A stretch of 64,000 nt of DNA from Gemmatimonadota bacterium (lineage in GTDB: Bacteria > Latescibacterota > UBA2968 > GCA-2709665): contig JAPPFJ010000024.1 in assembly GCA_028877215.1 (NCBI GenBank), forward strand, positions 20,835 through 84,834, read 5' to 3'. The notes below the pieces were generated by a model, which was given only the letters and a program-made list of their open reading frames with translations, was not told the DNA's origin and ran no database searches. Positions 18,851 through 36,368 of this stretch are shown here, in pieces. The position numbers and the translations under genes are program-made. Each line of letters begins with the position of its first letter. Position 1 is the stretch's first letter.

Positions 18851-18900
18851 CCGGGCGCTTCTTCGTGAATCGAGTCGAAAACGACATGGGAGGTGTTGTG

Positions 18901-21900
18901 ATGCATTGGGTAAAGACCCTGCTCATAAGCGCATCTTGCATCGTGACGATGCAATGTCCAGTCGAATCCGCGCGAGGGGACTTCCACTTCGTGAGATCGG
19001 CGGACGGGGAGCACCTGGCCTTTGTCAGCAGACGTGGTGAGGGGGCGGTTTCGCTGTCCGAAATATGGCACGTCTCCCCGAAATACGAAAGCCCCAGGAA
19101 ACTGACGGCCTTTCCCGGCGAACCCGGAACCCTCCATTTTGCGCCTGGCGGGGACGAGCTGATCTACCTCGAGCGAAGCCTGCGGCGGGAAGCCTGGGGC
19201 TCGTATTTTTACGGGGGGCAGCCGCTCCCGATTACGCGAAACCGAGTCTGGCGGTTGCGCCTGGACGGCGCCGGAGAGGAGGCGTGGCCCCTTCCCGGAG
19301 ACCTGCAACCCCTCGAGATCGCGCTCTCTCCCGACGGACGGTCGCTGGCGATTGCCGGGTATCGGGGAAGTGAATTGGCCATGGTGTACCGCGGTCTATG
19401 GATCGTGAATGACCGCGGCGATATCAGGCATCTGTTTGCCGGCGATGTTGCGGGGCCGGTAGCGTGGTCAGCGGACGGGAACTCTGTCAGGTGCCGAATC
19501 AATGACGGAGCAGAGTCGATTCGCGTTCATGTAGACACGGGAGAGGCCGTCCCGATAGATATCAAAAAAGATATACCCATGATCGGGAAACGGAGTCATG
19601 AGCCTTTTCTGCTTACCCGAACGTCCCCTGGCATGCGCGAGGCCGACGGTGCGGATGCGGCCCTGGGCCTGATCGGTACCGGCCTGGATCTGTATATACG
19701 CGGACGGAACGCGCTGCACCGGGGAAACGAAGCAAGAGCGGAGAAGATGCTCGAGCAGTCCAGGCGCGCATTCAGGAAACTCTACGATGGGGCCGCGAAG
19801 TACGGACTGTCGAGGAAGAGTTGCACGAGATACATCGAAGTATGCGAAGACTGGATCGAAGCTGACACCGGGACGACAGACAGACACAACTGCCGGGAGC
19901 GTCTGACGGGGATGCTGCGGTTGATCGAGGGCTTCAAGCGCACCAGGGACGGCAGTGAACCCGCGGATCTCGGAGAACTACACCAGTGGGCAACAGCCAG
20001 GATTGTTGCAGAGACGCCCTCCGGGAACGAACGGGATGAATACAAAACCATCCTCGGCGTGCTGTTCTCCTGCCCGGTAAACAGGGACTACGCATTCCTC
20101 AGCGACTATCTCTATAGGCACGAAGGGTTGCCCGCCGCGCCGGACCTGGCATGTTTCTGGCACCGAGGCGAGCGGATCGACGGCATCGCCGGTCGCGCCG
20201 GCGGTCACACGAAAACCTCCATCCCGCGCGCGGCACAGGTGGACAGCCTGGCCGCCAGTGGACGCCGCGCCATGGACGGGGATGATCTGGATCGGGCTCG
20301 ACTGATCTTTCGCAGCGTGGCCCGTCAACGCCCCAGGGATCCCGATGCATACGTCAATCTGGGTCACATACTCTTGAAATTGAGACGATTCGAGGAATCG
20401 AAGGACGCGTTTCATCGTGCTCTGACCCTGGGGAGCAAGGCGCTGGGCCACCATGGCCTGGGAATGCTCTACGCGACGTGGCCGATGCAGCGGCACTTCG
20501 CGATTCACCATTTCACCGAAGCGCTGGTCAGGGACCGGAACTTTGTGGATGCGCGGTATCAGATGGCCAGAGTACGCTATGCGATGAAGCAGCGCGACGC
20601 CGAACTGGAAGCAAAGAGAGTCCTGAAAATGGACCCGGGCCACGCGGGCGCCTATCTGATGATCGCGGACTACTATCTGAACCTGTCCTGGGAATTCGAG
20701 AAGGCCGTCGTGTGGTATACGAAGTACCTCGCGCTTCGCCCGGAAGACGCGGACGCGCAGCGGCGGATGGGGGTTGCGTACCTGAAAGTCAGAGATTATT
20801 CCAGGATTATGGACCATCTGCTGGACTTCGTCAAAAGGCACCCCGAAGCCATCGAGTTGATGCCCATTATCGCCATTTCCGCCATCGAGCAGGACAAAGC
20901 GGATATGGCAATGGCGTTCTTCGAAGACTACATCTCCAAACTTGACCCGGAAGTGAAGGGATTGTACGAAGATATCTCGCTTGTCGCCTCCGGTGAGGAT
21001 CTCAGGGCATCTGATGAGACCCCGGGCCTGGATCGCGAGACGTATCTCAGACGATTCTGGAACGGGAAGGATCCGGACCTGTCCACACCGGTGAATGAAC
21101 GCCTGCTGGAACACTACCGAAGGGTCTGGTACGCACTGACCGAGTTTTCGGAAGGCAAACAACCGTGGGACGCGAGAGGCGACGTCTATGTCCGATTCGG
21201 GGAACCCGATCACCGGTCCCGGTCGGACGACCCCAACTTCAAACAGAGCCTGAAAGTGCAGCGGGTCAAGGAGCGGCTCGCTTACAACATCTACAAGGGC
21301 GACGTCCGCTCGCACACGTTTGTCGGACCCGTCTATCCCGTACGCAGCCTCAAACAGCTCGACGGCGCCTGGTACGAATTGAGAGAGGTTAAAATTGAGA
21401 ACTCGGAACCGTCGGCGTGTGAAATTGCCGGCGCGGCGGACCATGGAACACAGGCAGGCGATACGGAACCGAATCAGGACAGAGAAAGGGACCATTTCTT
21501 CGTGAATGACGATTCCGTGAAGTTAGGCATTTTGCCACTGGACGAAAGCCTGGGATTCGGCGACTATCACCCTGTTACCACCGGCGAAGACCGGAGCACC
21601 GTACCCTGGGAAACGTGGATCTATACCGGTGCGGGCGGCGGAATCGAAATCACCTTTACCGACGAGATTGGTTCCGGGATCTACGACTACGCTCCGGTAC
21701 CGCCAAACCAGGGGGATATCTCATTAGGTGAAACCGCGACGTTGAGCAGGCACGCGCCCCATTCCGTCTACCGGCGAGCAGCGCGTGTCACGCCCGATTT
21801 CTACACGCCACGACATGAAACGCCGCCGCTCGACTTCCACTATTCGCTTGCCGACTTCAGGGGAGAAGAGGGCCGCAGCCTCCTGGAAATCTACTACGGC

Positions 21901-22638
21901 GTCCCCATTCTTCCGGCGCATTACGTGCCGGAAGAGGATTTCACACGGCAGGTTCTGACGCACCACGCGGCGCTCATTTCGTCGTCTCAAGACACGGTCT
22001 ACCGTCGAACCGACGAGATGACCTACGAAGCCGCCGGAAACCAGGCAGGAGAAGGCCTGATGGTACCTGACGTGCTGAAACTGGACCTGCCGCCCGGCGC
22101 CTACCGACTGGAGGTAAAGTCGCAGGACCGGTTACGGGGACGAACGGGCATCTATCAGCAGCAGGTTGGCGTGGATCGCTATGGTGAGGAACGATTGCAG
22201 ATCAGCGATCTGGAGATGGCCTGGCAGGTTGGCGCGGCAAATCCGACCGGTAAGTTTGCCAAGGGAGATCTGAACGTCATTCCGATGCCTTCGCGGACGT
22301 ACAAAAAGGGTCAGAGCGTGTTCGTCTACTACGAAATCTACAACCTGGACAAAGACGCGTTCGGTCAGACGAACTTCAACGTTTCCCATACCATCACGTC
22401 CAGAGATACTCCCGGGCGGGCGGGAAACATCTCGCGCCTGTTCCGGTGGGGAACCGGCAGGCGCGAGGAGCTTGCCGTCACGTATGAACAGCTGGGCGCG
22501 TCGGCACAGGTCGAGGAATACGTGGAACTCGCGCTGGACGTCCAGGATCCTGGACGATATTCATTGAAGGTATCGATCAGCGACAGGAACAGCGGTGAGA
22601 GCGTGGAGAAAGACGTGGCTTTTGTGATTACGCCTTAG
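18901..22638 (+). CDS. Large secreted protein: beta-propeller-like N-terminal extension, TPR repeats and GWxTD-type domain (G6, subfamily C)
   Basis: The track ORF starts with GTG at 18865. The ATG at 18901 follows GGGAGG and gives MHWVKTLLISASCIVTMQC. The N-terminal region has PD40/TolB-like strings (SPDGRSLAIAG, WSADGNSV). It contains FWNGKDPDLSTPVNERLLEHYRRVWYALTEF...QPWDARGDVYVRFGEPDH and VFVYYEIYNL. Confidence 0.85.
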   Translation: MHWVKTLLISASCIVTMQCPVESARGDFHFVRSADGEHLAFVSRRGEGAVSLSEIWHVSPKYESPRKLTAFPGEPGTLHFAPGGDELIYLERSLRREAWGSYFYGGQPLPITRNRVWRLRLDGAGEEAWPLPGDLQPLEIALSPDGRSLAIAGYRGSELAMVYRGLWIVNDRGDIRHLFAGDVAGPVAWSADGNSVRCRINDGAESIRVHVDTGEAVPIDIKKDIPMIGKRSHEPFLLTRTSPGMREADGADAALGLIGTGLDLYIRGRNALHRGNEARAEKMLEQSRRAFRKLYDGAAKYGLSRKSCTRYIEVCEDWIEADTGTTDRHNCRERLTGMLRLIEGFKRTRDGSEPADLGELHQWATARIVAETPSGNERDEYKTILGVLFSCPVNRDYAFLSDYLYRHEGLPAAPDLACFWHRGERIDGIAGRAGGHTKTSIPRAAQVDSLAASGRRAMDGDDLDRARLIFRSVARQRPRDPDAYVNLGHILLKLRRFEESKDAFHRALTLGSKALGHHGLGMLYATWPMQRHFAIHHFTEALVRDRNFVDARYQMARVRYAMKQRDAELEAKRVLKMDPGHAGAYLMIADYYLNLSWEFEKAVVWYTKYLALRPEDADAQRRMGVAYLKVRDYSRIMDHLLDFVKRHPEAIELMPIIAISAIEQDKADMAMAFFEDYISKLDPEVKGLYEDISLVASGEDLRASDETPGLDRETYLRRFWNGKDPDLSTPVNERLLEHYRRVWYALTEFSEGKQPWDARGDVYVRFGEPDHRSRSDDPNFKQSLKVQRVKERLAYNIYKGDVRSHTFVGPVYPVRSLKQLDGAWYELREVKIENSEPSACEIAGAADHGTQAGDTEPNQDRERDHFFVNDDSVKLGILPLDESLGFGDYHPVTTGEDRSTVPWETWIYTGAGGGIEITFTDEIGSGIYDYAPVPPNQGDISLGETATLSRHAPHSVYRRAARVTPDFYTPRHETPPLDFHYSLADFRGEEGRSLLEIYYGVPILPAHYVPEEDFTRQVLTHHAALISSSQDTVYRRTDEMTYEAAGNQAGEGLMVPDVLKLDLPPGAYRLEVKSQDRLRGRTGIYQQQVGVDRYGEERLQISDLEMAWQVGAANPTGKFAKGDLNVIPMPSRTYKKGQSVFVYYEIYNLDKDAFGQTNFNVSHTITSRDTPGRAGNISRLFRWGTGRREELAVTYEQLGASAQVEEYVELALDVQDPGRYSLKVSISDRNSGESVEKDVAFVITP

Positions 22639-24024: not shown

Positions 24025-24129
24025 GGGCGCCCACAAGGGACGCCCCTACATCACCTATCATCCACGAATTGAAATCTCTGGGTTCCGCTCTCGAGTTTAC
24101 ATTTGTAGGGGCGTCCCTTGTGGGCGCCC
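24025..24129. repeat. Inverted pair of REP-like elements (26-bp perfect inverted repeat, 53-nt spacer)
   Basis: GGGCGCCCACAAGGGACGCCCCTACA at 24025-24050 has its exact reverse complement at 24104-24129. Confidence 0.85.
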
Positions 24130-24163: not shown

Positions 24164-25732
24164 ATGGCAGGCTTCGGACGTACCCCGATTTCCCTCCCTC
24201 TTCGTCTCTTTCTAAGCGCGCTCGTGCCGGTTGTGTTAGGCTGGACAGACGCTCCCGCCGAGTCCGAAAAGAAATCACCAGCCGTCCCGTTCGGGGGACC
24301 CACGAGTACCGACTGGTACGGGGCTTTCGTGACGTGGGATGAGACATACGGGGACAGGTATCTGGACGGCCGCGACGGAGGGTCGTTCGCATGGGGTCCG
24401 TCGGCCTACGTGCAGCGGATGTACCTGAACCTGTATCAGACGTTCGGAGAAACCGTCTGGCTGGACAAACTGGTACGACATATCGATCGCATTCTGACCG
24501 CCCGGTCGGACTTGCCGCCGTACGAAGTCTACGATCCGCGATACGTCGACGGATACGGAGGATGGGGGCAGAACCGGTATAGCCAGTACAGGCCAGAATA
24601 TACCGAATGGTTTTCCGACGATGGATTGATTGTCAGCCCGATCCTGGCATTCGTGGAGCTGGTCTGGGAGGATCCGACCCTGCACGCGGCGTACAGGGCC
24701 AAAGCGGATGAGTACCTGCGCGTTGTTGAAGAGGATGTGATCGCCAAGTGGTACGCCAACTGGGCGCCGGACCCGGGTTGGACGGCGGACGACAGCAGCC
24801 GCTACGGCGAGGATGCGGGATACCACCTGTACGAATGGTCCGGGTGGAAGCGCCAGCCGCTGAATATGTACCTGTCGTTTGCGGATGCGCTGGTCACGCT
24901 CCGTCGCCTTTCCAGGTCGTCGTATTACAAGCCGCACAAAGCTGGTTTCGTACCGTTTTACGCTGACCAGAGCGAGCGGATGTTACGGTACTTCCACGAT
25001 CAGCTGCTGTACGATTCGGAAGCCGAGGCGTATACCTGGAAATACGGTCCGGAGAGCCACTGGCCCCACCTGATGGAGGACGTCGGGCATGCCTTTATCG
25101 ATATCCAGGCGGCGCTGCAGGGGGTTCGAAGCGGTCTGAGTTTCGCCCGGAAGGACCTTGATAGGATGGCCAATACGTTCGTCCACCACGTCTGGAACGG
25201 GAGCCTGGAGGAGCCTGCGTTCAGATACTACATAGGAGGTCCCGCAAGCAAGCTCGACGCGGAACGGGGCTGGAGTGGGTGGGGGTTTCTCTACCTGGCC
25301 AGGTACGACTACCGGATCTGGGAATCGATGGCGGCGTACTTCGAAAAAGAGATCTCGATTCAGGCATGGCCGGCTCACGTGGCGGCGACAGCCGCGATGC
25401 TGGGCATAGCAACGCAGGACTACGACAGGTGGCCCCCCGGCGCGCCGCTGCATCTTGAAGTCGCTCGCGATGGACAGGACGTACAGGTTTCCTGGCGCCG
25501 TCCGGAAACCGACGCCGACGGCACGGCGCTTACGGGGCTGAAAGGGTACATTGTGTACCGGGCGACCGCGACGGAAGGGCCGTTCGCCCCTCTGAACGAG
25601 ACGCCCCTGGACACGACACGCTACGTGGATCCGGGCGCGGCATCCGGATCGTTCCACTATCGGATCACCGCCGTGGACTACCGGCGGCCTTCGAACGAGG
25701 GTCCACCCTCCGCTGTGGTTTCGACGCCGTAA
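24164..25732 (+). CDS. Secreted protein with C-terminal fibronectin type III-like domain; N-terminal domain of unknown function
   Basis: 522-aa ORF with signal-like MAGFGRTPISLPLRLFLSALVPVVLGW. The C-terminus LHLEVARDGQDVQVSWRRPETDADGTALTGLKGYIVYRATATEGPF...FHYRITAVDYRRPSNEGPPS is FN3-like. Confidence 0.7.
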   Translation: MAGFGRTPISLPLRLFLSALVPVVLGWTDAPAESEKKSPAVPFGGPTSTDWYGAFVTWDETYGDRYLDGRDGGSFAWGPSAYVQRMYLNLYQTFGETVWLDKLVRHIDRILTARSDLPPYEVYDPRYVDGYGGWGQNRYSQYRPEYTEWFSDDGLIVSPILAFVELVWEDPTLHAAYRAKADEYLRVVEEDVIAKWYANWAPDPGWTADDSSRYGEDAGYHLYEWSGWKRQPLNMYLSFADALVTLRRLSRSSYYKPHKAGFVPFYADQSERMLRYFHDQLLYDSEAEAYTWKYGPESHWPHLMEDVGHAFIDIQAALQGVRSGLSFARKDLDRMANTFVHHVWNGSLEEPAFRYYIGGPASKLDAERGWSGWGFLYLARYDYRIWESMAAYFEKEISIQAWPAHVAATAAMLGIATQDYDRWPPGAPLHLEVARDGQDVQVSWRRPETDADGTALTGLKGYIVYRATATEGPFAPLNETPLDTTRYVDPGAASGSFHYRITAVDYRRPSNEGPPSAVVSTP

Positions 25733-25826: not shown

Positions 25827-26144
25827 CTACTTGTCCAGGGCAGCGATACCGGCCAGCGCGATGGGGGGGCGGTCCGGGAATTCCGCTACCAGGCGCAACC
25901 TGCCCCCCATCGCTTCGACGTAGCCGCTGAGCGTGGAAAGCAGCAGGTCGCTGCGCTTTTCGATACGGGATACGTTTTCCTGGTTGATCCCAAGTTCCTT
26001 CGCTACGCGCACCTGCGTCCACTTTCGGGCCCTTCGCAGGTCTCGCAGCGACATCTCTTCGGCGATCAGCGCCCTGGCTCGTTCTTCCACTTTCCTCCGT
26101 CGCGCCTCAGGCAGCTTGTCAATTCTCTCAGTGAGCGTCTTCAT
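25827..26144 (-). CDS. XRE-family HTH antitoxin (HigA-like)
   Basis: 105 aa. The HTH is LRRARKWTQVRVAKELGINQENVSRIEKRSD, followed by LSTLSGYVEAMGGRLRLVAEFPD, typical of antitoxins paired with RelE/HigB-like toxins. It overlaps the upstream toxin gene by 4 nt (ATGA). Confidence 0.8.
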   Translation of the reverse strand: MKTLTERIDKLPEARRRKVEERARALIAEEMSLRDLRRARKWTQVRVAKELGINQENVSRIEKRSDLLLSTLSGYVEAMGGRLRLVAEFPDRPPIALAGIAALDK

Positions 26145-26509
26145 CTTGACCTCCTGCTATTTTGGAGCTGTTCCAATTCCATATTGAATCGTCTGTCCGC
26201 TTTCCTGATCAGCAGTTTGTAGAAACGGCGTTCGTCTATATCCGACTTGTCACCGGCAGCGAGCAATACAGCTTTTCGTTCGGTGTCAAAGGCAAATGCC
26301 ACCCTCCAGACTCCGCCGCAAGCTCTAAATCGAAGCTCCTTCATATTGGCGTGTTGCGAACCGTTCAACGTGTCCACTCTCGGACGCCCAATGAAAGGCC
26401 CGAATGTCGCAATAAGCGTTGCTTGTGCAAGCAACTCGTCCTGCACGTCGTTGGACAAAGCGTCGAATTCGGAGTCGAACGCCGGGTGGAAACTTACGTC
26501 CCAGTCCAT
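26141..26509 (-). CDS. RelE/ParE-superfamily (HigB/Gp49-like) toxin
   Basis: 122 aa. The MKELRFRACGGVWRVAFAFDTERKAVLLAAGDKSDIDERRFYKLLIRKADRRF pattern is typical of this toxin family. The toxin-first gene order is as in higBA. Confidence 0.75.
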   Translation of the reverse strand: MDWDVSFHPAFDSEFDALSNDVQDELLAQATLIATFGPFIGRPRVDTLNGSQHANMKELRFRACGGVWRVAFAFDTERKAVLLAAGDKSDIDERRFYKLLIRKADRRFNMELEQLQNSRRSR

Positions 26510-26835: not shown

Positions 26836-27492
26836 ATGGAAAACCGTGAATCATCGGTGTCCGAAATGGTGTCCGGCGCCGCGCAGATAGAGGCGCTTGA
26901 CGAGGAAGTGGAGGGTCGCGCAGGAGATTACGATGTGTCCCGGGCTTTATCCGACCTGCGTTGCTCTCAGAAATTGACGCAGGAGGAACTGGCGGAACGG
27001 GCCGGCTGCACACAGAGCAAGATCTCGAGAATCGAAAACAGCAGTAACGATCGGCTCAAACTCGATGACCTGACGATGTACGCCCGCGCTTTCAATATGC
27101 AGGTTTCGATTGATTTCACACGGGAATCGTCTTCCGCAGACGCCACCGAACGCCTGGCGCGCCAGATCAGGAGCGGCCTCGTTGACGTGGCTGAAAGGGC
27201 GCGGCACCAAGGTGTTGCGGACGAAGGCGCGAAGAAGACTTACGAAGCATTCCTGTTTTCGATGCTTGAACTATTCATGGATGAACTGGAGGGCCTTCGC
27301 GCGCGCCGCAACGGCTCGCCGGAATCTGGAGAGACGACGAGGGCGGGTAACGGCAGGCCTATGGGTCCCGCGGGTCAGATAGAAACATCGAGCCGCGAGA
27401 AGAGGAACAACGGCTCTACCGTATTCAGGATATTCACGCCAATTGACATCAATGAAGAGAACGGCAGGACCGAATCCCAACGCGAGGGGTGA
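26836..27492 (+). CDS. XRE-family helix-turn-helix transcriptional regulator
   Basis: The ATG follows GAGGAGGG. The HTH is LRCSQKLTQEELAERAGCTQSKISRIENSS. It is divergent from the TA pair across an AT-rich 326-bp spacer. Confidence 0.75.
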   Translation: MENRESSVSEMVSGAAQIEALDEEVEGRAGDYDVSRALSDLRCSQKLTQEELAERAGCTQSKISRIENSSNDRLKLDDLTMYARAFNMQVSIDFTRESSSADATERLARQIRSGLVDVAERARHQGVADEGAKKTYEAFLFSMLELFMDELEGLRARRNGSPESGETTRAGNGRPMGPAGQIETSSREKRNNGSTVFRIFTPIDINEENGRTESQREG

Positions 27493-27517: not shown

Positions 27518-27543
27518 GGGCGCCCACAAGGGACGCCCCTGCA
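27518..27543. repeat. REP-like hairpin element (GGGCGCCCACAAGGGACGCCCCTGC)
   Basis: Same family as 11338 and 24025/24104. Confidence 0.8.
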
Positions 27544-27667: not shown

Positions 27668-28762
27668 ATGACATCCAGAATCTTAACAGCGTTGTTTCTG
27701 ATCTCGAGCTTCTGGGCCTGTGGCGGCGATTCGGTCACGACGCCGGAGCAGCCAGCTCTTGAACGGGGTCTCCACGAGGTCGGTGTCATGACCCAGCCTC
27801 GGCTTCAACATTTCGCGACGTTAATGCAGAATGGCAAGGTCCTGATCGGGGGCGGATACGAGGAACCGCTCTCAACCCGTCGCATCAGCGCCGAAATATT
27901 CGATCCGTTGACCGGGTCCTCTTCGCCAACGGGCAATATGACCGTCAGTCGATCCACGGACAAGGGTATCCTGCTTGCCGACGGTCGCATCCTGATTATG
28001 CCCAGGTATCATGATTTTCCCGTTGAGATCTACGATCCTCATTCCGCTCGATTCGAAGCCCTGGCGAAAATTCCCTGGTATCCGCCCATTACCACTGCAA
28101 ATCTGCTTCAAAGCGGCAGGATATTCGTGACGACCCAGCAGCATGCGGCGGTCTTCGACCCTGCTGCGGGCGCCTTTACCTCCTTAGTCGCGATGGAGGA
28201 AACACGAAAAAACCATACGTCGACGTTGCTAAAGGACGGCCACGTGTTGATCGTCGGCGGGAGCACGGGGAATAACGAGTTGACCGGGCGGAATCTGATC
28301 TACCATCCCTCGTCAAATGGTTTTACGGAAGCCGGTCGTCTGCAGGTTGACCGCTGGGGCCATACGGCCTTGCTTCTCCATGACGGCAGAGTTCTGATCC
28401 TGGGCGGCCATACCGGTTCGGAACAGGCAATCCTTGCCGAGATGTACGACACCGAAACGGACACGTTCTCGCCGGTCGGAGTGGCCGCGATTTCGCCGCT
28501 GGCTGCCCTGCTGCTGCCGTCCGGCAGAGTGTTGCTCATCCACGTGCCCAACGGCAATATCGTACTTTACAATCCGGATACGCATGAATTATCTCCTACA
28601 GTGTACAGCATAGGACCGTGGCGAAGCGGTGCGACGGTTACGCTCCTTGAAGACAACCGGGTAATGATTGCCGGCGGCTGGAAATACAGGGACAGCTCGA
28701 CGCAAAGTGGGCAGGGTCAAGAGCGGGAGATGTCGGATCAGATTCTAATATTTGCCCCATAG
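27668..28762 (+). CDS. Kelch-repeat beta-propeller lipoprotein (K3), first of six tandem copies
   Basis: The N-terminus MTSRILTALFLISSFWACGGDSVTTPEQPALERGLHEVG is conserved among K3-K8, and seven Kelch-like blades are present. The Cys follows F-W-A, an atypical but plausible lipobox. Confidence 0.85.
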   Translation: MTSRILTALFLISSFWACGGDSVTTPEQPALERGLHEVGVMTQPRLQHFATLMQNGKVLIGGGYEEPLSTRRISAEIFDPLTGSSSPTGNMTVSRSTDKGILLADGRILIMPRYHDFPVEIYDPHSARFEALAKIPWYPPITTANLLQSGRIFVTTQQHAAVFDPAAGAFTSLVAMEETRKNHTSTLLKDGHVLIVGGSTGNNELTGRNLIYHPSSNGFTEAGRLQVDRWGHTALLLHDGRVLILGGHTGSEQAILAEMYDTETDTFSPVGVAAISPLAALLLPSGRVLLIHVPNGNIVLYNPDTHELSPTVYSIGPWRSGATVTLLEDNRVMIAGGWKYRDSSTQSGQGQEREMSDQILIFAP

Positions 28763-28792
28763 GGGATAAGGGTTCCGACATTGTAATATTCA

Positions 28793-28841
28793 GGAAGCCG
28801 GTTTGAGGGTGGGGCGGACATTCCTGTCTGCCCGCTTCGCC
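28793..28841 (+). repeat. Post-Kelch hairpin repeat, copy 1
   Basis: GGAAGCCGGTTTGAGGGTGGGGCGGACATTCCTGTCTGCCCG contains the stem GGGCGGACA / TGTCTGCCC (9 bp including one G-T pair) with a TTCC loop. It recurs after K4, K5, K6 and K8. Confidence 0.85.
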
Positions 28842-28893
28842 AGGCGCCTCTCGTAGAAGACTCACGGAAAGACAATAGAAATGGAGGAAGAAG

Positions 28894-30015
28894 ATGACAG
28901 CCCGAATCGCAATAGCATTGTTGGGGATCTCAAGCTTCTGGGCTTGCGGGAGCGACTCGGTGACGGCACCGGAGCCGCCGGCCCATGAAAGGGGTCTCCA
29001 CGAGGTTGGCGCGATGACCCGGCCGCGCTTTGAGCACGCAGCGACGTTATTACAAAGTGGAAAGGTCCTGATCGCCGGGGGCAACGCGGAAATGCCTCCT
29101 TCTGAACCTGGAGTACCTTTCAGGCCCAGCGGTCTTGTCAGCGCGGAGGTTTTCGATCCTGAAACCGGGGTCTCAACACCAACGGGAGACCTGACCGCAA
29201 GTCGATGGGACGACCACGGCATATTGCTTCCCGAAGGACGGGTCCTGATGATATCCAGATTTCTTAGACTCCCCATTGAGATGTACGACCCCCACTCCGG
29301 TAGATTCGATTCCGCAGCAAACGCGCCGTGGTCAAATGGAACGAGTACTGCCACCCTGTTGCCCAACGGAGAGGTCCTTTTAATCGGAGGGTCATCCGCG
29401 GGTCGCGCACGTGTCCTCGATCCCGCTTCAGGTACACTTTCCGACACATTCGCGATGGACCATCCCGGATATGGCCATACGGCCACTTTGCTGAAGGACG
29501 GCCGCGTGCTGATCGTTGGAGGAGCCCGCAGGGGAGTCGAGTTGACGGGACGGAATCTGATCTACGATCCCTCATCCGAAGCCTTTTCAAGAGCAGGCGA
29601 CCTGCAGTTCGACCGCGCACACCACAAGGCGGTGCTCCTTCAGGACGGCAGGGTGCTGATCGTCGGCGGCCACGTCGGAGACGGGCCTCGCGTACAGACG
29701 GCCGAGATCTACGATCCCGAAACAGACACCTTCTCGCCCGCCGGAACTTCCGCAATGCATCCGTTGGCCGCCCTGCTGCTGCCGTCCGGCAGGGTATTTT
29801 TCATTCATTCAGACAACGGTAATATCTCCCTTTATAATCCGGATACTCAAGTATTTTCGCCGCCTACAGGGTATAGTCTAGGTCCGTGGCGAAACGGGGC
29901 GACGGTAACGCTCCTCGATGACGGCCGCGTGCTTATCGCCGGCGGATTGAAGACGGCGGATGACAGTCATTCTCATGAGTCGATTTCGGATAAGATTTTC
30001 ATCTTCACGCCCTGA
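28894..30015 (+). CDS. Kelch-repeat beta-propeller lipoprotein (K4)
   Basis: MTARIAIALLGISSFWACGSDSV..., with the GGAGGAAGAAG RBS region. Colinear paralog of K3-K8. Confidence 0.85.
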   Translation: MTARIAIALLGISSFWACGSDSVTAPEPPAHERGLHEVGAMTRPRFEHAATLLQSGKVLIAGGNAEMPPSEPGVPFRPSGLVSAEVFDPETGVSTPTGDLTASRWDDHGILLPEGRVLMISRFLRLPIEMYDPHSGRFDSAANAPWSNGTSTATLLPNGEVLLIGGSSAGRARVLDPASGTLSDTFAMDHPGYGHTATLLKDGRVLIVGGARRGVELTGRNLIYDPSSEAFSRAGDLQFDRAHHKAVLLQDGRVLIVGGHVGDGPRVQTAEIYDPETDTFSPAGTSAMHPLAALLLPSGRVFFIHSDNGNISLYNPDTQVFSPPTGYSLGPWRNGATVTLLDDGRVLIAGGLKTADDSHSHESISDKIFIFTP

Positions 30016-30567
30016 GAGTTGCCGTTGACCGAACTGTCATGCTGAGGAAGCCGCCACGCAGGCGATGGGTCCGCGCACAGGTTCGTCTACAAAGGCCATA
30101 CGCTACATGTATAATCGAGGAGACGGGAGATTCTTCGACTCCGCTCAGAATGGCATGTTCTGTAATAACCATCAGCGACATGTGTCGGTGATACGTCGGC
30201 GTAAACCGTCATGCAGACGAAGCCGGTTTGAGGGTGGGGCGGACATTCCTGTCTGCCCGCCTCGCTCAGAACGATATGTTTTGCGATAACCATTGGCGAA
30301 GTGTCGAAAGGCTGTTGAATGGCGGGCATTTCGACATTTCGACACGCTCAATGCAGGCATGCTCAATGACCACGCGTTATTTAGTTCATCGGATGTCACT
30401 AGGCCGCTGAGAGGAGACCCAAAACCTGCCCAGCGCCGCTATCTGAGCCTGTCGAAGGTGCTGCCCTGAGCCTGCGGTCCCTGAGCTTGTCGAAGGGTCG
30501 TAGGGGCAGGCGACGGCTGATGCGGTGGGGGGATGTCAGTTCACTCGCAGTCGTGGAGGCAAACATT
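30016..30567. repeat. Repeat-rich spacer between K4 and K5, composed of several REP-like modules
   Basis: It contains three module types. One is the GCTCAGAA(T/C)G..ATGTT.TG..ATAACCAT module, present twice. The second is hairpin repeat copy 2 at 30218-30262. The third comprises GGCGGGCATTTCGACATTTCGACACGCTCAATGCAGGCATGCTCAATGACCACGC and CTGAGCCTGTCGAAGG / CCCTGAGCTTGTCGAAGGGTCG. Most modules recur at 35403-35760. Confidence 0.75.
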
Positions 30568-31704
30568 GTGAATGCCAGATTCTATTTTGCACTGTTAATC
30601 GTCTCGAGCTTCTGGGCTTGCGGAGGCGATTCGGTTACGACGCCGGAGCAGCCTGCCCTTGAACGGGGTCTCCACGAGGTCGGCAATCTGAGCCAGCCCC
30701 GGTATTGGCATGCCGCGACTTTGTTGCAGAACGGCAAGGTCCTGATCGCGGGCGGCCTCGAAGAACTGCCTGTCGTACTCGCGGGGCCGCCTCCCCCGGA
30801 TACCCCCATTCCCCAGCCGAAGCGTCTCATCAGCGCGGAAATATTCGACCCTGAGACCGGGATCTCAACGCCAACGGGAAACATGGCCGCAAGTCGCAGC
30901 GGGGACCACGGAATATTGCTTCCCGACGGCCGGGTCCTGATCATACCCGGAAATCCCAATCTCCCCATTGAGAGGTACGATGCTCATTCCGGCAGATTCA
31001 ACCCTGTGGCAGTTTTGCCTGGGAGAGTTGGGATTCTGACTGCCACTTTGCTTCTCGACGGAAAGGTCTTCTTGACCAGCACGTTATACGCGGGTGTCTT
31101 CGACCCGACTACAGGCCCATTCTCCCCCTTATTCAGGATGGATCCTTCCCGAATCGGCCATACGGCCACTTTGTTGAAGGACGGCAGGGTGTTGATCGTT
31201 GGAGGACAGAATGTCGGAGTGGACGCAGGGTTGCTGGGACGGAATCTTATCTATGATCCCTCGACCGAAGCCCTTTCGGAAGCAGGCAACTTGCAGTTCG
31301 ACCGCAGGAATCATAAGGCGGTGCTACTGGAGGACGGGAGGGTCCTGATCATAGGCGGCGGCGCCGCCGGCAGAGGGCCATTCGTGCAGACGGCAGAGAT
31401 CTACGACCCGGAAGCCAATACCTTTTCACCGGCCGGCGTCTCAACGATCGATCCCAGCGCCGCCCTTCTGCTGCCGTCCGGCAACGTGTTTCTTATCCGC
31501 TCGTACAACGGCGATATCGTACTGTATGATCCCGCCACGCACGCATTTTCCGGTACCGGATACAGCATCAGCCCGCGCAGGTCCTTTGCGACGGCCACGC
31601 TTCTTGAAGACGGCCGCGTGATGGTCGCCGGCGGAATCAAGTGGACGGCTGACAATCACGATTGGGAGTCGATTACGGATCAGATTTCCATTTTTACCCC
31701 GTGA
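30568..31704 (+). CDS. Kelch-repeat beta-propeller lipoprotein (K5)
   Basis: The track ORF starts at 30487, inside repeat DNA. Alignment with the paralog N-termini supports the GTG at 30568, after GTGGAGG, giving (M)NARFYFALLIVSSFWACGGDSV. Confidence 0.8.
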   Translation: MNARFYFALLIVSSFWACGGDSVTTPEQPALERGLHEVGNLSQPRYWHAATLLQNGKVLIAGGLEELPVVLAGPPPPDTPIPQPKRLISAEIFDPETGISTPTGNMAASRSGDHGILLPDGRVLIIPGNPNLPIERYDAHSGRFNPVAVLPGRVGILTATLLLDGKVFLTSTLYAGVFDPTTGPFSPLFRMDPSRIGHTATLLKDGRVLIVGGQNVGVDAGLLGRNLIYDPSTEALSEAGNLQFDRRNHKAVLLEDGRVLIIGGGAAGRGPFVQTAEIYDPEANTFSPAGVSTIDPSAALLLPSGNVFLIRSYNGDIVLYDPATHAFSGTGYSISPRRSFATATLLEDGRVMVAGGIKWTADNHDWESITDQISIFTP

Positions 31705-31730
31705 GACACACAGGAGTCACTACTGTCAAT

Positions 31731-31775
31731 AGGAAGAAGCCGGTTTGAGGGTGGGGCGGACATTCCTGTCTGCCG
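31731..31775 (+). repeat. Post-Kelch hairpin repeat, copy 3
   Basis: AGGAAGAAGCCGGTTTGAGGGTGGGGCGGACATTCCTGTCTGCC. Confidence 0.85.
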
Positions 31776-31835
31776 TTGTGTGAGCCCTGTCGAGTCGATG
31801 TCGTACCCTCAGTCCCCTGACGTGGAGTATAGAGA

Positions 31836-32951
31836 ATGACCACCAGAATCTTGTTTGCGCTGTTAATCCTCTCAAGCCTCTGGGCTTGCGGAGGCGATTC
31901 GGTAACGACGCCGGAACAGCCGACTTATGAAAGGGGTCTCCACGAGGTCGGCACGATGACCCGGCCGCGCTATATGCACGCGGCAACGCAATTGCAAAGT
32001 GGAAAGGTCCTGATTGCCGGGGGCAACGCGGCACTACCTCCTGCGGGAGAAGGTGTGTGGGAGATCGATGGTCTTGTCAGCGCGGAGATTTTCGATCCTG
32101 AAACCGGGATCTCAACGCCAACGGGAGACCTGACCGCCAGTCGCGAAGAGGACCACGGAATATTACTGCTTCCCGACGGTCGGGTCCTGATCACAACCGG
32201 GTTTGGTAGTCTCTCTATTGAGATTTACGATCCTCAATCCGGCAGATTCGACGACGTGGCAATCTTGCCCTGGAGAGTCAGGACTCAGACTGCGACCCTG
32301 CTGCCCAGCGGAGAGGTCTTTTTGACCAGCTACTTTCAAGCGGGTGTCTTCGATCCCAGTAAAGGTGCGTTTTCCGCCACATTCCGGATGTATCCTACCC
32401 GTGTTGGCCATACGGCGACTCTGTTGAAGGATGGCAGGGTGTTGATCGTTGGAGGAAAACTCTTCGGAGGGGAATGGTTGCTGGGACAGAATCTTATCTA
32501 TGATCCCTCGACCGAAGCCTTTTCGGAAGCAGGTAACCTGCAGTTCGACCGCGTACACCATAAAGCGGTGCTCCTTCAGGACGGCAGGGTACTGATCGCA
32601 GGCGGCTCCACCGATCCTGGGGCTCCCGTTCTGACGGCCGAGATTTACGACCCGGAAACCGATACTTTCTCAGCCGCTGGAACTTCTGCAATGAATCCAA
32701 GGGCCGCCCTTCTATTGCCGTCCGGCAAGGTATTCTTTATTCACTCAGACAACGGCAATATCTCCATATATAACCCGGATACCCGAGTATTTTCGCCGCC
32801 TACAGGGTACAGTATAGGTCCGTGGCGATACGGGGCGACGGTAACGCCTCTCGAAGACGGCCGCGTCGTTATCGCCGGCGGATTGAAGTGGTCGGATGAC
32901 AGTCATTTTTGGGAGTCGATTACGGATGAAATTCTCATTTTCACGCCCTGA
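31836..32951 (+). CDS. Kelch-repeat beta-propeller lipoprotein (K6)
   Basis: MTTRILFALLILSSLWACGGDSV...; colinear paralog. Confidence 0.85.
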   Translation: MTTRILFALLILSSLWACGGDSVTTPEQPTYERGLHEVGTMTRPRYMHAATQLQSGKVLIAGGNAALPPAGEGVWEIDGLVSAEIFDPETGISTPTGDLTASREEDHGILLLPDGRVLITTGFGSLSIEIYDPQSGRFDDVAILPWRVRTQTATLLPSGEVFLTSYFQAGVFDPSKGAFSATFRMYPTRVGHTATLLKDGRVLIVGGKLFGGEWLLGQNLIYDPSTEAFSEAGNLQFDRVHHKAVLLQDGRVLIAGGSTDPGAPVLTAEIYDPETDTFSAAGTSAMNPRAALLLPSGKVFFIHSDNGNISIYNPDTRVFSPPTGYSIGPWRYGATVTPLEDGRVVIAGGLKWSDDSHFWESITDEILIFTP

Positions 32952-32980
32952 GAGTAACCGTGCACCCGATCTGTCATGCC

Positions 32981-33031
32981 AAGGAAGCCCGGTATGAAGG
33001 TGGGGTAGACATTCCTGTCTGCCCGCTTCGC
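32981..33031 (+). repeat. Post-Kelch hairpin repeat, copy 4 (diverged)
   Basis: AAGGAAGCCCGGTATGAAGGTGGGGTAGACATTCCTGTCTGCCCGCTTCGCC. Confidence 0.8.
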
Positions 33032-33085
33032 CGACCCTATCGCGTAGATTTCGCGCTCACGGACCCTTGACGAGGAGGAGAAAAA

Positions 33086-34222
33086 ATGACTGCACGAATC
33101 TTGTTTGCCCTGTTTATCGTCTCAAGCTTCTGGGCCTGCGGAAGCGATTCGGTCACCACGTCGGCGCCGCCGGCCCTTGAAAGGGGTCTTCACGAGGTTG
33201 GCAATCTGAGCAAGCCCCGGTATTGGCATGCCGCGACATTATTGCAGGATGGGAAGGTCCTGATCGCCGGCGGCTACGCGGAATTGCTTCCCGTGCTCGA
33301 TGCGCCACCTCCCCCGAATACCGCCATTCCCCGGCCGGAGCGTCATGTCAGCGCAGAGTTGTTCGATCCTGTGACCGGGACCACTACCCCTACGGGAGAC
33401 ATGACCGTGAGTCGCAGCGGGGACCACGGAATAATGCTTGCCGACGGTCGAGTCATAATCATCCCCGGATCTGCGCGTCTTCCCATCGAGATGTACGATC
33501 CTGAGTCGGGCAGATTCGACTTTGTGGCAAACGTGCCTGGGGATGTGGGGATCCGGACTGCCACGCTACTGCCCAACGGAGAGGTCTTTTTGACCAGCAC
33601 GGTACACGCGGGTGTCTTTGACCCGGATACAGGTACATTTCCCGCCGTTTTCGCTATGGATCAGCCGCGATTCGGTCATACGGCGACTTTATTGAAGGAC
33701 GGCCGCGTGCTGATCGTTGGGGGGAAGACAGTGGGAAGGGACGCCGGGCTGGTCGGCAGAAACCTGATTTACGATCCCTCGTCCGAAGCTTTTTCAGAAG
33801 CAGGCGATCTGCAAATCGACCGACTGAATCACAAAGCAGTGCTTCTTCAGGACGGCGGAGTCCTGATCATTGGCGGTAGCGATGCCGATTTTCGGAAGTC
33901 CGTACAGACCTTGGAGATGTACGACCCTGAAACCAACACGTTTTCGCCAGTCGGCGTTTCGACAATTGAACCGCTGGCCGCGTGGTTGCTGCCTTCCGGC
34001 AGAGTGATGTTCATACGCTCGATTAACGGCGATATCGCACTATACAATCCCGCGACACATGAATTCTCTCCCACGGGACACAGCATAGGGTGGCGGTCGT
34101 CGCCTACGGTAACGCTGCTTGCAGACGGCCGCGTGATGATTGCCGGTGGTTCGAAGGATACCGGCAGTGGACACACGTTCAAGGAGGAGATTACGGATCA
34201 GATTCTGATCTTCACGCCTTAG
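33086..34222 (+). CDS. Kelch-repeat beta-propeller lipoprotein (K7)
   Basis: MTARILFALFIVSSFWACGSDSV...; GAGGAGGAG RBS; colinear paralog. Confidence 0.85.
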   Translation: MTARILFALFIVSSFWACGSDSVTTSAPPALERGLHEVGNLSKPRYWHAATLLQDGKVLIAGGYAELLPVLDAPPPPNTAIPRPERHVSAELFDPVTGTTTPTGDMTVSRSGDHGIMLADGRVIIIPGSARLPIEMYDPESGRFDFVANVPGDVGIRTATLLPNGEVFLTSTVHAGVFDPDTGTFPAVFAMDQPRFGHTATLLKDGRVLIVGGKTVGRDAGLVGRNLIYDPSSEAFSEAGDLQIDRLNHKAVLLQDGGVLIIGGSDADFRKSVQTLEMYDPETNTFSPVGVSTIEPLAAWLLPSGRVMFIRSINGDIALYNPATHEFSPTGHSIGWRSSPTVTLLADGRVMIAGGSKDTGSGHTFKEEITDQILIFTP

Positions 34223-34265
34223 AGACGCGCTTAGAGACATTAGGTCTAAACCCGGGGGAAAGAAT

Positions 34266-35402
34266 ATGACCACCAGAATCCTGTTCGCGTTGTTCGTCGT
34301 CACGAGCGTATGGGCCTGTGGCGGCGATTCGGTGACCACGTCGGCGCCGCCGACCCTTGAACGGGGTCTCCACGAGGTTGGCAATCTGAGCAAGCCCCGG
34401 TATTGGCACGCCGCGACGTTATTGCCGAACGGCAAGGTTCTGATCGCCGGCGGCCTGGCGGAGCCGCCAACAGAGGTCCAGGACCCGTCTCCGGGCGGTA
34501 CTGTCATCTGGCGGCCCTCGGGTTCTCTCGCCAGCGCGGAGGTGTTCGATCCTGAAACGGGTATCTCTACGCCAACCGGAGATATGACCGCCAGACGATA
34601 CAACGACAATGGATTCTTGCTTCCCGACGGTCGCGTCCTGATCATGCCCGGAAATGGAATTCTCCCCATAGAGATGTACGATCCTCATTCCGGCAGATTC
34701 GACGCCGTGGCAGGGATGCCGTCCAATGTAAACATCACGACTGCAACACTGCTACCCAGCGGAGAGGTCTTTGTGACCAGTTGGGACCACACGGGTGTTT
34801 TCGATCCGGATACCCGCGCGTTTCACTCCATCTTTAAGAGGGAGGAAACTCGAAGACTCCATACAGCGACGCTGTTGAAGGATGGACGCGTTCTGGTCGT
34901 TGGAGGAGTGCGTCGCGGATTTGAAGACGGTTTGGTTGGACGGAACGTCATTTACGATCCCTCGTCCAGGGGCGTATCCGAAGCCGGTAATCTGCAGTTC
35001 GACCGCACAAACCATAAGGCGGTGCTTCTCCAGGACGGCAAGGTCCTGATCGTTGGGGGGCACACCGAAACAGGGACTTTCTTGCAGACGGCCGAGACAT
35101 ATGACCCTGAAACGAACACGTTTTCGCCGGCCGGCGTTTCTACCATCGACCCGAGCGCCGCCGTGCTGTTGCCGTCCGGCGACGTGCTCCTCATCCGATC
35201 GTATAACGGCGATATCGCGCTATATAATCCCGACACGCATGTATTTTCACCTACAGGACACAGCATTGGATGGCGGTCGTTGCCTACGGTTACGCTGCTC
35301 GCGGACGGACGCATTATGATTGCCGGCGGATCGAAGGATGCCGACAATGGGCATTCGGTCAAGGAGGAAATTTCGGATCAGATCCTGATCTTCACGCCCT
35401 GA
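34266..35402 (+). CDS. Kelch-repeat beta-propeller lipoprotein (K8)
   Basis: MTTRILFALFVVTSVWACGGDSV...; only 43 nt after K7; colinear paralog. Confidence 0.85.
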   Translation: MTTRILFALFVVTSVWACGGDSVTTSAPPTLERGLHEVGNLSKPRYWHAATLLPNGKVLIAGGLAEPPTEVQDPSPGGTVIWRPSGSLASAEVFDPETGISTPTGDMTARRYNDNGFLLPDGRVLIMPGNGILPIEMYDPHSGRFDAVAGMPSNVNITTATLLPSGEVFVTSWDHTGVFDPDTRAFHSIFKREETRRLHTATLLKDGRVLVVGGVRRGFEDGLVGRNVIYDPSSRGVSEAGNLQFDRTNHKAVLLQDGKVLIVGGHTETGTFLQTAETYDPETNTFSPAGVSTIDPSAAVLLPSGDVLLIRSYNGDIALYNPDTHVFSPTGHSIGWRSLPTVTLLADGRIMIAGGSKDADNGHSVKEEISDQILIFTP

Positions 35403-35760
35403 GAGTTACCGCGTACCCGATCTGTCATGTTGAGGTAGCCGGTTTGAGGGTGGGGCGGACATTCCTGTCTGCCCGTATCGCTATCCATCTCTGTTTGCCG
35501 GTAGGATCGGAATCGGTCTACAGTTACCCTCGCCCGATATGCAAACGACTATTGTTGCCTGCTCCCCGAGCCGCTCCCTGAGATTGCGGTCCCTGAGCTT
35601 GTCGAAGGGTCGAAGGGTCGGCGCGGGGATAGCGAAGCGCGGGCATTTCGACATTTCGACAAGCTCAATGCAGGCATGCTCAATGACCACGCTTCGGTAT
35701 GCGATCTTCGCTACGCTCAGAATGACATGATTTGCAATAACCGGGGTCGAAATGTATACT
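35403..35760. repeat. Repeat-rich spacer after K8, homologous in modules to 30016-30567
   Basis: It contains hairpin repeat copy 5 (35431-35476), CCCTGAGCTTGTCGAAGGGTCGAAGGGTCG, GCGGGCATTTCGACATTTCGACAAGCTCAATGCAGGCATGCTCAATGACCACGC and CGCTACGCTCAGAATGACATGATTTGCAATAACC. Confidence 0.75.
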
Positions 35761-35831
35761 TCATTCGCTAGCGCGAACAGGTATACTGAGGAAGCCGGTG
35801 TCTAGTTTACAGAATTGGAGAGGACCGCAAT

Positions 35832-36368
35832 ATGCAACTGAGGTTTGGATGGAAATCCTGGGTGTTGATGGGCATCGCGGTGGTGCTGGCGGGTGTCGCG
35901 CTGGGGCAGATGCTCGTGGAGACGCCGGAGCCGGAGAACGCACTGCCCGTGGGCCCGGCCGCACCCGACTTCGCGTTGGACAGTCCGGACGGCTCGGTTG
36001 TCCGGTTATCCGATAATAAGGACCGTGTTGTCCTGATCAACTTCTGGGCGACCTGGTGCGTACCGTGCCTGTACGAATTGCCGCATATTCAGAAGTTGCA
36101 CGAACGGTATCGCAACAAGGGCTTGACGGTGCTTGCCATCAACTCCGACTTCGACCGGGCGCGCGTGGAGCCGTTTGTCCGGAAAAACGGCTACACGTTT
36201 CCGGTGCTGTTCGCCGATCCCGGCGTTCAATCCGACTACGACGTCCGGAGCATTCCAACCACCTATCTGGTCGACAGGAAAGGCCGTCTCAGGTTCGCGC
36301 AAACGGGCTACGGCCCCGACACCGAAACGGAACTGGACTGGGCACTCGAACAGCTATTGGGAAAGTAG
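35832..36368 (+). CDS. TlpA/ResA-family thiol-disulfide oxidoreductase (thioredoxin fold), membrane anchored
   Basis: It has an N-terminal hydrophobic segment. FWATWCVPCLYELPHIQKL carries the CxxC motif (WCVPC), and YTFPVL...YDVRSIPTTYLVDRKG is typical of the family. Confidence 0.85.
   Translation: MQLRFGWKSWVLMGIAVVLAGVALGQMLVETPEPENALPVGPAAPDFALDSPDGSVVRLSDNKDRVVLINFWATWCVPCLYELPHIQKLHERYRNKGLTVLAINSDFDRARVEPFVRKNGYTFPVLFADPGVQSDYDVRSIPTTYLVDRKGRLRFAQTGYGPDTETELDWALEQLLGK

Follow-up and report, generated by a model that had tools for sequence, protein, structure and literature searches.

A diversified family of Kelch propeller genes, candidate envelope binding proteins, in a bacterium judged to live in marine sponges

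A stretch of 64,000 nucleotides from a metagenome-assembled genome (MAG; assembly GCA_028877215.1, contig JAPPFJ010000024.1, positions 20,835–84,834), here called the window, carries eight genes for Kelch beta-propellers, K1–K8. Six of them (K3–K8) form a head-to-tail array, and two (K1 and K2) are outlying copies. We put at roughly 0.6 the probability that the eight genes are a diversified family of cell-envelope binding propellers – proteins that would be tethered to the membrane, would work with neighbouring proteins of the GWxTD type, and would have their ligands in a sponge host. Families of diverged tandem paralogs built on a widespread domain are an everyday feature of bacterial genomes, and an expanded repeat-domain family of the envelope is a familiar kind of system. 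The parts most worth follow-up are the exchange of one gene, K4, between species and a widespread hairpin sequence that accompanies the genes.

The habitat was judged to be a marine sponge from record names (ENA ROBB21-1 and RHO-named MAGs) and from the study of Robbins et al. (PMC8163846). Sponge symbionts are uncultured, and repeat-protein families are the main candidates for the means by which the host recognises and tolerates them.

Fold, authenticity and age of the Kelch genes

All eight open reading frames (ORFs) that an initial annotation of the window had listed are present and intact on the plus strand, with lengths of 359–378 aa, and the six head-to-tail genes occupy 27668–35402. Every one of the proteins exceeds the Pfam cut-offs for Kelch_6 (52.7–79.7 bits, cut-off 25.3), Kelch_4 (54.7–83.5 bits, cut-off 21.6) and Kelch_1 (41.5–61 bits, cut-off 20.1). 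K7 was modelled with AlphaFold2 from an alignment of 57 sequences (pLDDT 89.4, pTM 0.85); the model has seven four-stranded blades, or 28 strands, plus an N-terminal closing strand. Residues 2–14 form the signal helix, the chain is disordered up to residue 29, and the strand at 34–40 completes blade 7. The propeller fold that had been proposed is thus present in the structure prediction. Seven motif-bearing blades had been proposed as well; seven blades are modelled, but the H..LL.DG.VL..GG motif is complete in four or five of them and degenerate in blades 2, 3 and 6. The top Foldseek matches of the model were the Kelch domains of NS1-BP, KLHL17/20 and KEAP1 (E ca. 1e-14 to 1e-16, probability 1.00), with the propeller of Streptomyces GlxA matched as well, and a profile search of the PDB returned designed Kelch proteins, GlxA, galactose oxidase and KLHL/KEAP1. 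By family scores and by this model, K1–K8 are seven-bladed Kelch propellers.

The array genes share an N-terminus and a C-terminal I(T/S)D(Q/K)I.IFTP strand, as had been described and as is seen in an alignment of the proteins (alignment A1). In the same alignment K3 is 59–61% identical to the other array copies and 43–45% identical to K1 and K2. At the nucleotide level the array paralogs are 65–79% identical, with a synonymous divergence (dS) of 0.46–1.07. Each copy has its own start codon, and a Shine-Dalgarno-like purine-rich sequence precedes most of them, most clearly K4–K7. The start of K5 is the GTG at 30568, with GGAGG nine bases before it; there is no ATG, a TTG at 30487 proposed by the ORF lister was discarded, and the gene call of an independent assembly begins at the identical base. 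The NCBI locus tags in the array are OYM47_13040 and OYM47_13045. The ratio of non-synonymous to synonymous divergence (omega) over whole genes is 0.12–0.51 between orthologs and 0.16–0.42 between paralogs. The copies evolve under purifying selection, and since omega is below 1 and each has its own start codon, all of them are functional.

The window derives from a short-read MAG, and the ca. 40 nt shared exactly at the edges of the cassettes could in principle mislead an assembler. The array, or the near-identical K4 described below, might on these grounds be put down to an artefact of metagenome assembly or binning, such as a chimeric or collapsed join through a shared repeat. This is extremely improbable. 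With paralogs as diverged as these, an assembler could neither collapse nor invent copies. Over the 13,122 bp from K2 to K8, the window agrees at 100% with an independent ENA assembly made from the same sample. A second sample and another MAG contain the same six array genes, K4 included, in the same order and at 99.0–99.5% identity, and the low divergence of K4 recurs between megabase-scale contigs of two other genomes. The possibility that the array is an assembly duplication, which had been named as a check, is refuted by the 21–35% DNA divergence of its members together with the identical re-assembly and the second sample and MAG. The six-gene array is genuine.

One genome per species was scanned for relatives, with the loci labelled L001 onward. 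The closest are complete or near-complete Candidatus Latescibacterota MAGs, together with MAGs named RHO2 and RHO3. Homologs more than 55% identical all fall within a narrow lineage, and genomes of this Latescibacterota-type lineage have Kelch proteins at several loci. NCBI lists the window MAG itself under Gemmatimonadota, and the closest complete genomes, up to 95% identical in DNA here, under Candidatus Latescibacterota; one label or the other is probably mistaken. Weaker relatives (30–38% identity) number more than 500 and are found in soil Acidobacteriota, Chloroflexota and Verrucomicrobiota.

Six related genomes share the order of a GWxTD gene (G6), K2, a 522-aa protein, a helix-turn-helix (HTH) protein, the Kelch array and a thioredoxin-like protein. 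The array holds from 4 to 6 or more genes among them, and this difference between related species bears out the copy-number expansion suggested at the outset. The order is K3-K6-K5-K7-K8 at L006 and K4-K5-K6-K8 at L003, and K7 was found in the window and L006 only. L006 belongs to the nearest genome overall (flank dS 0.10–0.29); its K3 ortholog has a dS of 0.185 and an omega of 0.17 to K3, a K6-type gene fills its K4 slot, and it has no K4-type gene. In a neighbour-joining tree, the orthogroups K2, K3, K4, K5, K6, K7 and K8 cut across species, each paralog being closer to foreign orthologs than to paralogs of its own genome. The duplications are therefore older than the species, and the copies have been kept distinct, not homogenised.

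Gene conversion among the cassettes of one genome, for which the conserved ends had been thought to provide, found no support. In a GENECONV-style permutation test of the six window copies (15 pairs, 588 polymorphic sites), the best shared tract had p = 0.0065, non-significant after correction for 15 pairs, and the paralogs remain separate orthogroups across species. These results also bear on antigenic or phase variation, in which a single expressed copy would draw on the others as donors, by recombination through conserved 5' and 3' ends. Head-to-tail genes, the conserved N-terminal coding sequence, C-terminal strand and intergenic repeats, and an exposed variable face are all features of such a system. 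Yet all copies are complete: each begins at its own start codon, mostly behind a Shine-Dalgarno-like sequence, encodes a full signal peptide and has an omega below 1; the paralogs are 21–35% diverged and each is an ortholog kept across species; the intragenomic tracts are not significant; in two strains from different samples the six genes and their order agree, at 99% identity; and there is no recombinase or invertase among the neighbouring genes scanned. We regard such a system as very unlikely.

The statement that the duplicated unit included non-coding DNA holds. Four modules of the long K4–K5 spacer recur after K8 in a different order, at 100%, 98%, 93% and 86% identity, a pattern consistent with an array that grew by duplication of blocks, 3' flanking DNA included. 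The shared 3' flank that had been cited, GAGAGT..CCG...CTGTCATG, is found after K4, K6 and K8 and more weakly after K5, but is absent after K3 and K7. It leads into the conserved hairpin repeat, the presence of which alone is not evidence of co-duplicated non-coding DNA. One of the shared spacer elements is a 46-nt imperfect inverted repeat (35579–35682), with a weak, chance-level match in Rfam. The present paralogs arose by old tandem and block duplications in which flanking non-coding DNA was carried along, and they persist as separate orthologous lineages under purifying selection, with gains and losses of copies from one species to another.

The variable face and a proposed membrane anchor

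Loops were labelled from the DSSP strands of the K7 model, and column entropy was calculated over 34 array-type sequences from seven genomes. Entropy was highest in the B-C loops (1.59 bits) and the D-A loops (1.20), followed by the C-D turns (0.82), the strands (0.70) and the A-B turns (0.53). On the face formed by the B-C and D-A loops, omega was 0.12–1.03 in ortholog pairs and 0.34–1.06 in paralog pairs, compared to 0.07–0.29 in the scaffold; values near 1 were found in the K4/K6 clade only. Variation does cluster in loops between the strands and on one face, as had been claimed, these loops having both the highest entropy and the highest omega. The Pro-rich insert described earlier as following blade 1 in K4, K5, K7 and K8 sits in the B-C loop of blade 1 itself. 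K5, K7 and K8 have a long insert, K4 and K6 a shorter one, and K3 none.

Kelch domains bind their ligands on the face of the B-C and D-A loops, which papers label top or bottom inconsistently. In the proteins studied here, the conserved scaffold consists of the strands together with the short A-B ('DG') and C-D ('DP.TG') turns. On the opposite face, the long B-C and D-A loops differ from paralog to paralog and include the Pro-rich insert of blade 1. Each paralog therefore has a distinct putative binding surface, the ligands of which would be matrix components or glycans of the sponge host.

Glycans could also be the object of catalysis, if the propellers were periplasmic Kelch enzymes – of the galactose oxidase, glyoxal oxidase or GlxA type, or mutarotases like NanM – with the paralogs as isozymes for host-derived sugars. 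Glycan-degrading enzymes are reported to be abundant in sponge Latescibacterota (PMC8163846), and both sequence and fold place GlxA and galactose oxidase near the top of the PDB matches. There are also weak matches to the enzyme models: Glyoxal_oxid_N (20.9–30.5 bits, E 1e-4 to 1e-7), the GlxA model NF052501 (39.3–55.5 bits), the NANM family PF24996 (16–19.7 bits, E ca. 1e-3) and NF010730 (15 bits). All of these scores are far below the curated cut-offs (37.5, 800, 45 and 416 bits, respectively). Mature K2–K8 have no Cys other than that of the lipobox, Cys18, which is the sole invariant Cys of the family; they are thus unable to make the Tyr-Cys cofactor found in radical copper oxidases. The proteins consist of the propeller only, without the extra domains of GlxA and galactose oxidase, and the would-be active-site face is the least conserved part of the protein. 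Identity with GlxA, glyoxal oxidase or NanM was rejected on the scores and the missing cofactor Cys, and we consider an enzymatic role of this kind distinctly improbable.

The precursors have a short, typical signal peptide of 17 residues ending in Cys, followed by a flexible Ser/Thr/Pro-rich linker of ca. 15 residues and then the propeller. In each of the 42 family members that were examined, M-x-x-R is followed by a hydrophobic stretch and then, near position 18, by a Cys, and Cys18-Gly19 is invariant in alignment A1. Bacterial lipoproteins have a positively charged n-region, a hydrophobic h-region and a lipobox [LVI][ASTVI][GAS]C with the Cys at ca. 15–35. Lipoboxes were assessed here with PROSITE-like and G+LPPv2 patterns. 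K1 (LAAC) and K2 (LMGC) pass both patterns. K3–K8 have the form (F/L/V)-W-A-C and are rejected by both, solely for the Trp at -2. This W-A-C form is the commonest in the family, found in 29 of the 42 members, including most K3–K8 orthologs. The lipid anchoring announced for the family is therefore well supported only for K1 and K2, by their canonical lipoboxes; for K3–K8, with an atypical one, putative lipidation can reasonably be inferred from the alignment and from homology and position relative to K1 and K2. Cleavage by signal peptidase II would leave a lipidated Cys and a propeller tethered to the membrane, on the periplasmic side or at the cell surface.

Table 1. Positions of the Kelch genes, intergenic elements and neighbouring genes in the window
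Feature	Position	Strand	Basis or remark
K1, outlying copy, 359 aa	11622–12701	+	ORF, Pfam Kelch; lipobox L-A-A-C; downstream of G4
K2, outlying copy, 360 aa	22884–23966	+	ORF, Pfam Kelch; lipobox L-M-G-C; downstream of G6
K3, candidate Kelch propeller pre-lipoprotein, 364 aa, opens the array	27668–28762	+	Pfam Kelch_6 E=2e-22
K4, 373 aa	28894–30015	+	ORF, Pfam Kelch; near-identical K4 in L003/L004
K5, 378 aa	30568–31704	+	GTG start after GGAGG; independent gene call agrees
K6, 371 aa	31836–32951	+	ORF, Pfam Kelch, ortholog grouping
K7, 378 aa, modelled copy	33086–34222	+	AlphaFold2, Foldseek; identical to NCBI protein OYM47_13040
K8, 378 aa	34266–35402	+	ORF, Pfam Kelch; K7–K8 gap of 43 nt without hairpin
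Near-identical K4 block, 1226 bp	28794–30019	+	Hairpin repeat, 5' leader, coding sequence, 4 nt beyond the stop
Long K4–K5 spacer	30016–30567	+	Four modules repeated after K8 (35403–35835)
Hairpin repeat, copy 1, core GGGGCGGACA-ttcc-TGTCTGCCC	28783–28841 (core 28808–28832)	+	62 nt before K4 start
Hairpin repeat, copy 2, in K4–K5 spacer	30208–30266 (core 30233–30257)	+	
Hairpin repeat, copy 3, K5–K6	31725–31783 (core 31750–31774)	+	
Hairpin repeat, copy 4, K6–K7	32974–33032 (core 32999–33023)	+	Two left-arm changes, pairing kept
Hairpin repeat, copy 5, after K8, array end	35424–35482 (core 35449–35473)	+	
G1–G4, tandem TPR-GWxTD genes, followed by K1	639–3260, 3371–5881, 6014–8503, 8559–11072	+	
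G5, TPR-GWxTD, 1101 aa	13254–16559	+	TIGR04514 60.5 bits
G6, TPR-GWxTD, 1257 aa, directly upstream of K2	18865–22638	+	TIGR04514 48.9 bits; synteny
XRE-type HTH protein, 218 aa, directly upstream of the array	26836–27492	+	Pfam HTH_3, HTH_31; position kept in relatives

Exchange of single cassettes and the hairpin repeat

K4 differs from the other Kelch genes in its similarity to genes of other species. It is 99.1% identical at the nucleotide level to the K4 genes of L003 and L004, with a dS of 0.014, compared to 0.47–0.88 for seven flanking genes and 0.81 for K2. The block of near-identity is 98.9% identical to L003 over its 1226 bp, and the flanks are 71–85% identical. Its left edge lies in the hairpin repeat and its right edge just past the stop codon, and identity collapses on both sides, as seen in a sliding window and in junction alignments. 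Between L003 and L004 themselves, on contigs of 5.9 and 5.4 Mb, the dS of K4 is 0.007 and that of the other Kelch genes 0.14–0.30; the low value also between these two genomes means that it is not an artefact of the window MAG. The signal is weaker in K5. Its dS to L003 is 0.12, 4–7 times under the background; with the value of 0.105 for L014 included, the difference is three- to sevenfold.

The simplest reading of these alignments is a recent homologous replacement of single cassettes between species, for K4 and partly for K5. Whole cassettes are occasionally replaced in this manner by homologous recombination at the conserved cassette edges, and K4 provides a specific example, one that can be dated, of a cassette for a probable surface protein passing between symbiont species.

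The hairpin core, GGTGGGGCGGACA-TTCC-TGTCTGCCC, folds as a 9-bp hairpin. It occurs five times in the window, each time within the array, and none of 100 shuffles gave a match. Taking the window and its relatives together, the core is the centre of a repeat of ca. 75 nt with 45 copies, most of them ca. 62 nt upstream of Kelch starts, single-copy loci included; some copies are on the opposite strand, away from Kelch genes. Variants of the left arm pair as G.U or A-U, on the plus strand only. The exact 26-mer core was also found in 65 metagenome contigs (L083–L147) from sediments, soils and digesters, between unrelated flanks and with no Kelch or GWxTD genes, often beside variants that covary in the stem, such as GGCAGGCAAGAATGCCTGCCCCACC. 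It was absent from 60 loci of other phyla. No Rfam family matched the hairpin, either at the gathering cut-offs or with E allowed to rise to 5, and the sequence was not found in the literature searched.

We treat the intergenic repeat as an element like the repetitive extragenic palindromes (REP). Like REP-type palindromes, it is a short, GC-rich intergenic hairpin present in many copies and on both strands, with stem changes that preserve pairing. Unlike them, it has an exact 26-nt core that is also found in the 65 contigs from unrelated environments.

A more far-reaching proposal is that the Kelch genes are exchangeable cassettes in general, that the hairpins ca. 62 nt upstream of their starts and at the array end are recombination handles, and that co-resident sponge symbionts trade host-binding propellers by way of them, the hairpin possibly being an undescribed functional RNA or DNA element. 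We think this rather improbable. If it were true, the symbiont community would share a repertoire of surface ligands, and K4 would be the latest sweep, through at least three species.

Several other features of the non-coding DNA were recorded. A second hairpin-like repeat, GGGCGCCCACAAGGGACGCCCCT, of which no copy is expected by chance, occurs at 11339–11361, 24025–24047, 24107–24129 (minus strand) and 27518–27540. The first site precedes K1 and the last precedes K3; the two between them follow K2, and the inverted one of these lies directly ahead of the next gene. In the relatives, two gene calls (P0026 and P0051) are artefactually long, their VGRTFLSAR and GQTFLSAR extensions being translated hairpin repeat, and a 591-aa 'HTH-Kelch fusion' (P0094) was dismissed as a read-through artefact that still has the signal peptide inside it. 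An integron-like cassette array was considered, on account of the structured repeat that follows the genes, and rejected: the cassettes are paralogs, the same repeat occurs singly elsewhere, there is no integrase among the neighbours scanned, and no GTTRRRY/RYYYAAC repeat ends were seen by eye, no formal attC/IntI search having been made. Promoter and terminator scans gave no excess over shuffled expectation, and there are no tRNAs in the window.

Neighbouring genes and comparison with known systems

Six paralogous TPR-GWxTD proteins of 829–1257 aa (G1–G6) are encoded within the same 23 kb, and most of them read PWD.RG for GW.TD. The model TIGR04514 (cut-off 28) matches G1 with 59.0 bits, and G5 and G6 as given in Table 1. 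Scores for the Pfam family GWxTD_dom (PF20094) are just under its cut-off (23.2–23.8 against 26.9), and G1 also matches Pfam TPR. The scan of G3 returned TPR only; all of G1–G4 have the pattern FW..DP..NER..EH by regular expression and align with G1 (alignment A3). A model of the C-terminal half of G1 (pLDDT 78) has a helical region followed by tandem beta-sandwiches. A structural search with it returned only tandem beta-sandwiches of a generic kind (highest TM 0.37), and the likeness to adhesins and matrix proteins is generic. No solved homolog of the GWxTD proteins was found beyond the TPR part, and a literature search returned no papers on GWxTD function.

The pairing of G6 with a following K2 is kept at nine loci (L001–L006, L014, L017 and L018). 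Kelch genes lie 16–70 nt downstream of G6-like genes at L012, L016, L017 and L018, and they adjoin G5- or G6-like genes at L012, L013 and L016, some of them between G5-like genes. That Kelch genes repeatedly adjoin GWxTD genes suggests that the two are a functional pair, in which the propellers would work with the neighbouring secreted proteins made of TPR, GWxTD and beta-sandwich parts. A hidden Markov model made from G1–G6 found no GWxTD genes beside the distant Kelch relatives in other phyla.

Pairing of this kind could also be had without any role for the host. BamB is a beta-propeller lipoprotein of eight blades that works alongside the TPR lipoprotein BamD, and the Kelch propellers may likewise be periplasm-facing housekeeping factors that assemble or tether the TPR-GWxTD proteins. 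The repeated G-then-K pairs, with their gaps of 16–70 nt at several loci and two paralogous versions per genome, are in favour of this, as is the presence of six G genes along with the eight K genes in the window. However, the six array genes are unpaired with G genes, a chaperone-like role predicts neither a fast-evolving face nor the exchange of single cassettes, and BamB, with its eight blades, is of a different family. We hold a housekeeping role to be unlikely.

The binding of host ligands by a membrane-tethered family remains our preferred reading, and several points weigh against it in addition to the rejected lipoboxes of K3–K8. The assignment of the B-C and D-A loops to one face comes from canonical Kelch topology and the DSSP string. 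Long loops outvary short ones in any protein, and most pairs have an omega under 1 on this face; much of the pattern is therefore accounted for by relaxed constraint. Synteny is the only link between Kelch and GWxTD proteins, and none of the six array genes has a GWxTD gene next to it. Soil bacteria commonly have Kelch relatives at 30–38% identity, without GWxTD neighbours, so the family is not specific to symbiosis. Finally, Kelch is absent from the published surveys of eukaryotic-like proteins in sponge Latescibacterota (PMC8163846, PMC12993501), and our literature search for Kelch lipoprotein arrays, or for Kelch proteins in sponge Latescibacterota, found nothing relevant.

The remaining neighbours lie between K2 and the array. 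A 522-aa protein (24164–25732) is found in this place in all related genomes. By eye it has a signal-peptide-like N-terminus and its C-terminal ca. 90 residues are fibronectin-III-like; it has no match in Pfam, NCBIfam or PADLOC. Two small minus-strand genes overlapping by 4 nt (25827–26144 and 26141–26509) encode a small HTH protein and a Gp49/HigB-like protein and resemble a toxin-antitoxin pair; the toxin gene is not called in the strain of the second sample. The HTH protein directly upstream of the array ends in ...STVFRIFTPID (27420–27450), which resembles the Kelch ending ...QILIFTP, with ca. 13 of 17 bases of DNA in common by eye – either a relic of a Kelch 3' end or chance. An anti-phage defence system was rejected for lack of a meaningful PADLOC match: K2, K7, the 522-aa protein and a phosphodiesterase-like protein had none, G1 had one weak match over a stretch of zero length (PrimPol, E 3e-4), and the HTH protein had generic HTH matches.

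The best structural matches of the propellers, KEAP1, KLHL proteins and NS1-BP, belong to the same Pfam repeat family, and their ligand face is the face that varies here. They are six-bladed, cytosolic and fused to BTB/BACK domains, whereas K1–K8 are seven-bladed, have a signal peptide and a canonical or atypical lipobox, and have no other domain; K7 is ca. 17–21% identical to their Kelch domains. The occurrence of relatives in many soil bacteria points to bacterial ancestry rather than a recent acquisition from eukaryotes. Radical copper oxidases share the seven-bladed Kelch fold and the H..LL.DG.VL..GG blades, and provide the best natural sequence matches in the PDB (4unm, 6ryv and 1gof). 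K2–K8 differ from them in lacking the Cys of the Tyr-Cys pair and any additional domain, and in scores far below the cut-offs.

The variable lipoproteins of Borrelia and Mycoplasma are paralogous surface-lipoprotein families in tandem arrays. The Kelch genes resemble these in being clustered paralogs whose signal peptide and putative lipobox are conserved and whose mature parts have diverged, and in the exchange of alleles between lineages. They differ in that nothing points to switching, to silent cassettes or to conversion within the genome, and in that the orthogroups are stable across species.

The eukaryotic-like families listed for sponge Latescibacterota are TPR, ankyrin, LRR, NHL, Sel1 and WD40, and repeat-protein families of sponge symbionts have been proposed to mediate host contact (PMC8163846, PMC12993501). 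K1–K8 are eukaryotic-like proteins in the same sense – a repeat domain typical of eukaryotes in a sponge-associated bacterium, with the host assigned from record names. Like the listed families, they are an expanded repeat-domain family, here beside an expanded TPR family; unlike them, Kelch is not on the list. The locus adds to these surveys a candidate family, a putatively lipid-anchored Kelch propeller with one variable face, and ties it by synteny to the uncharacterised GWxTD proteins.

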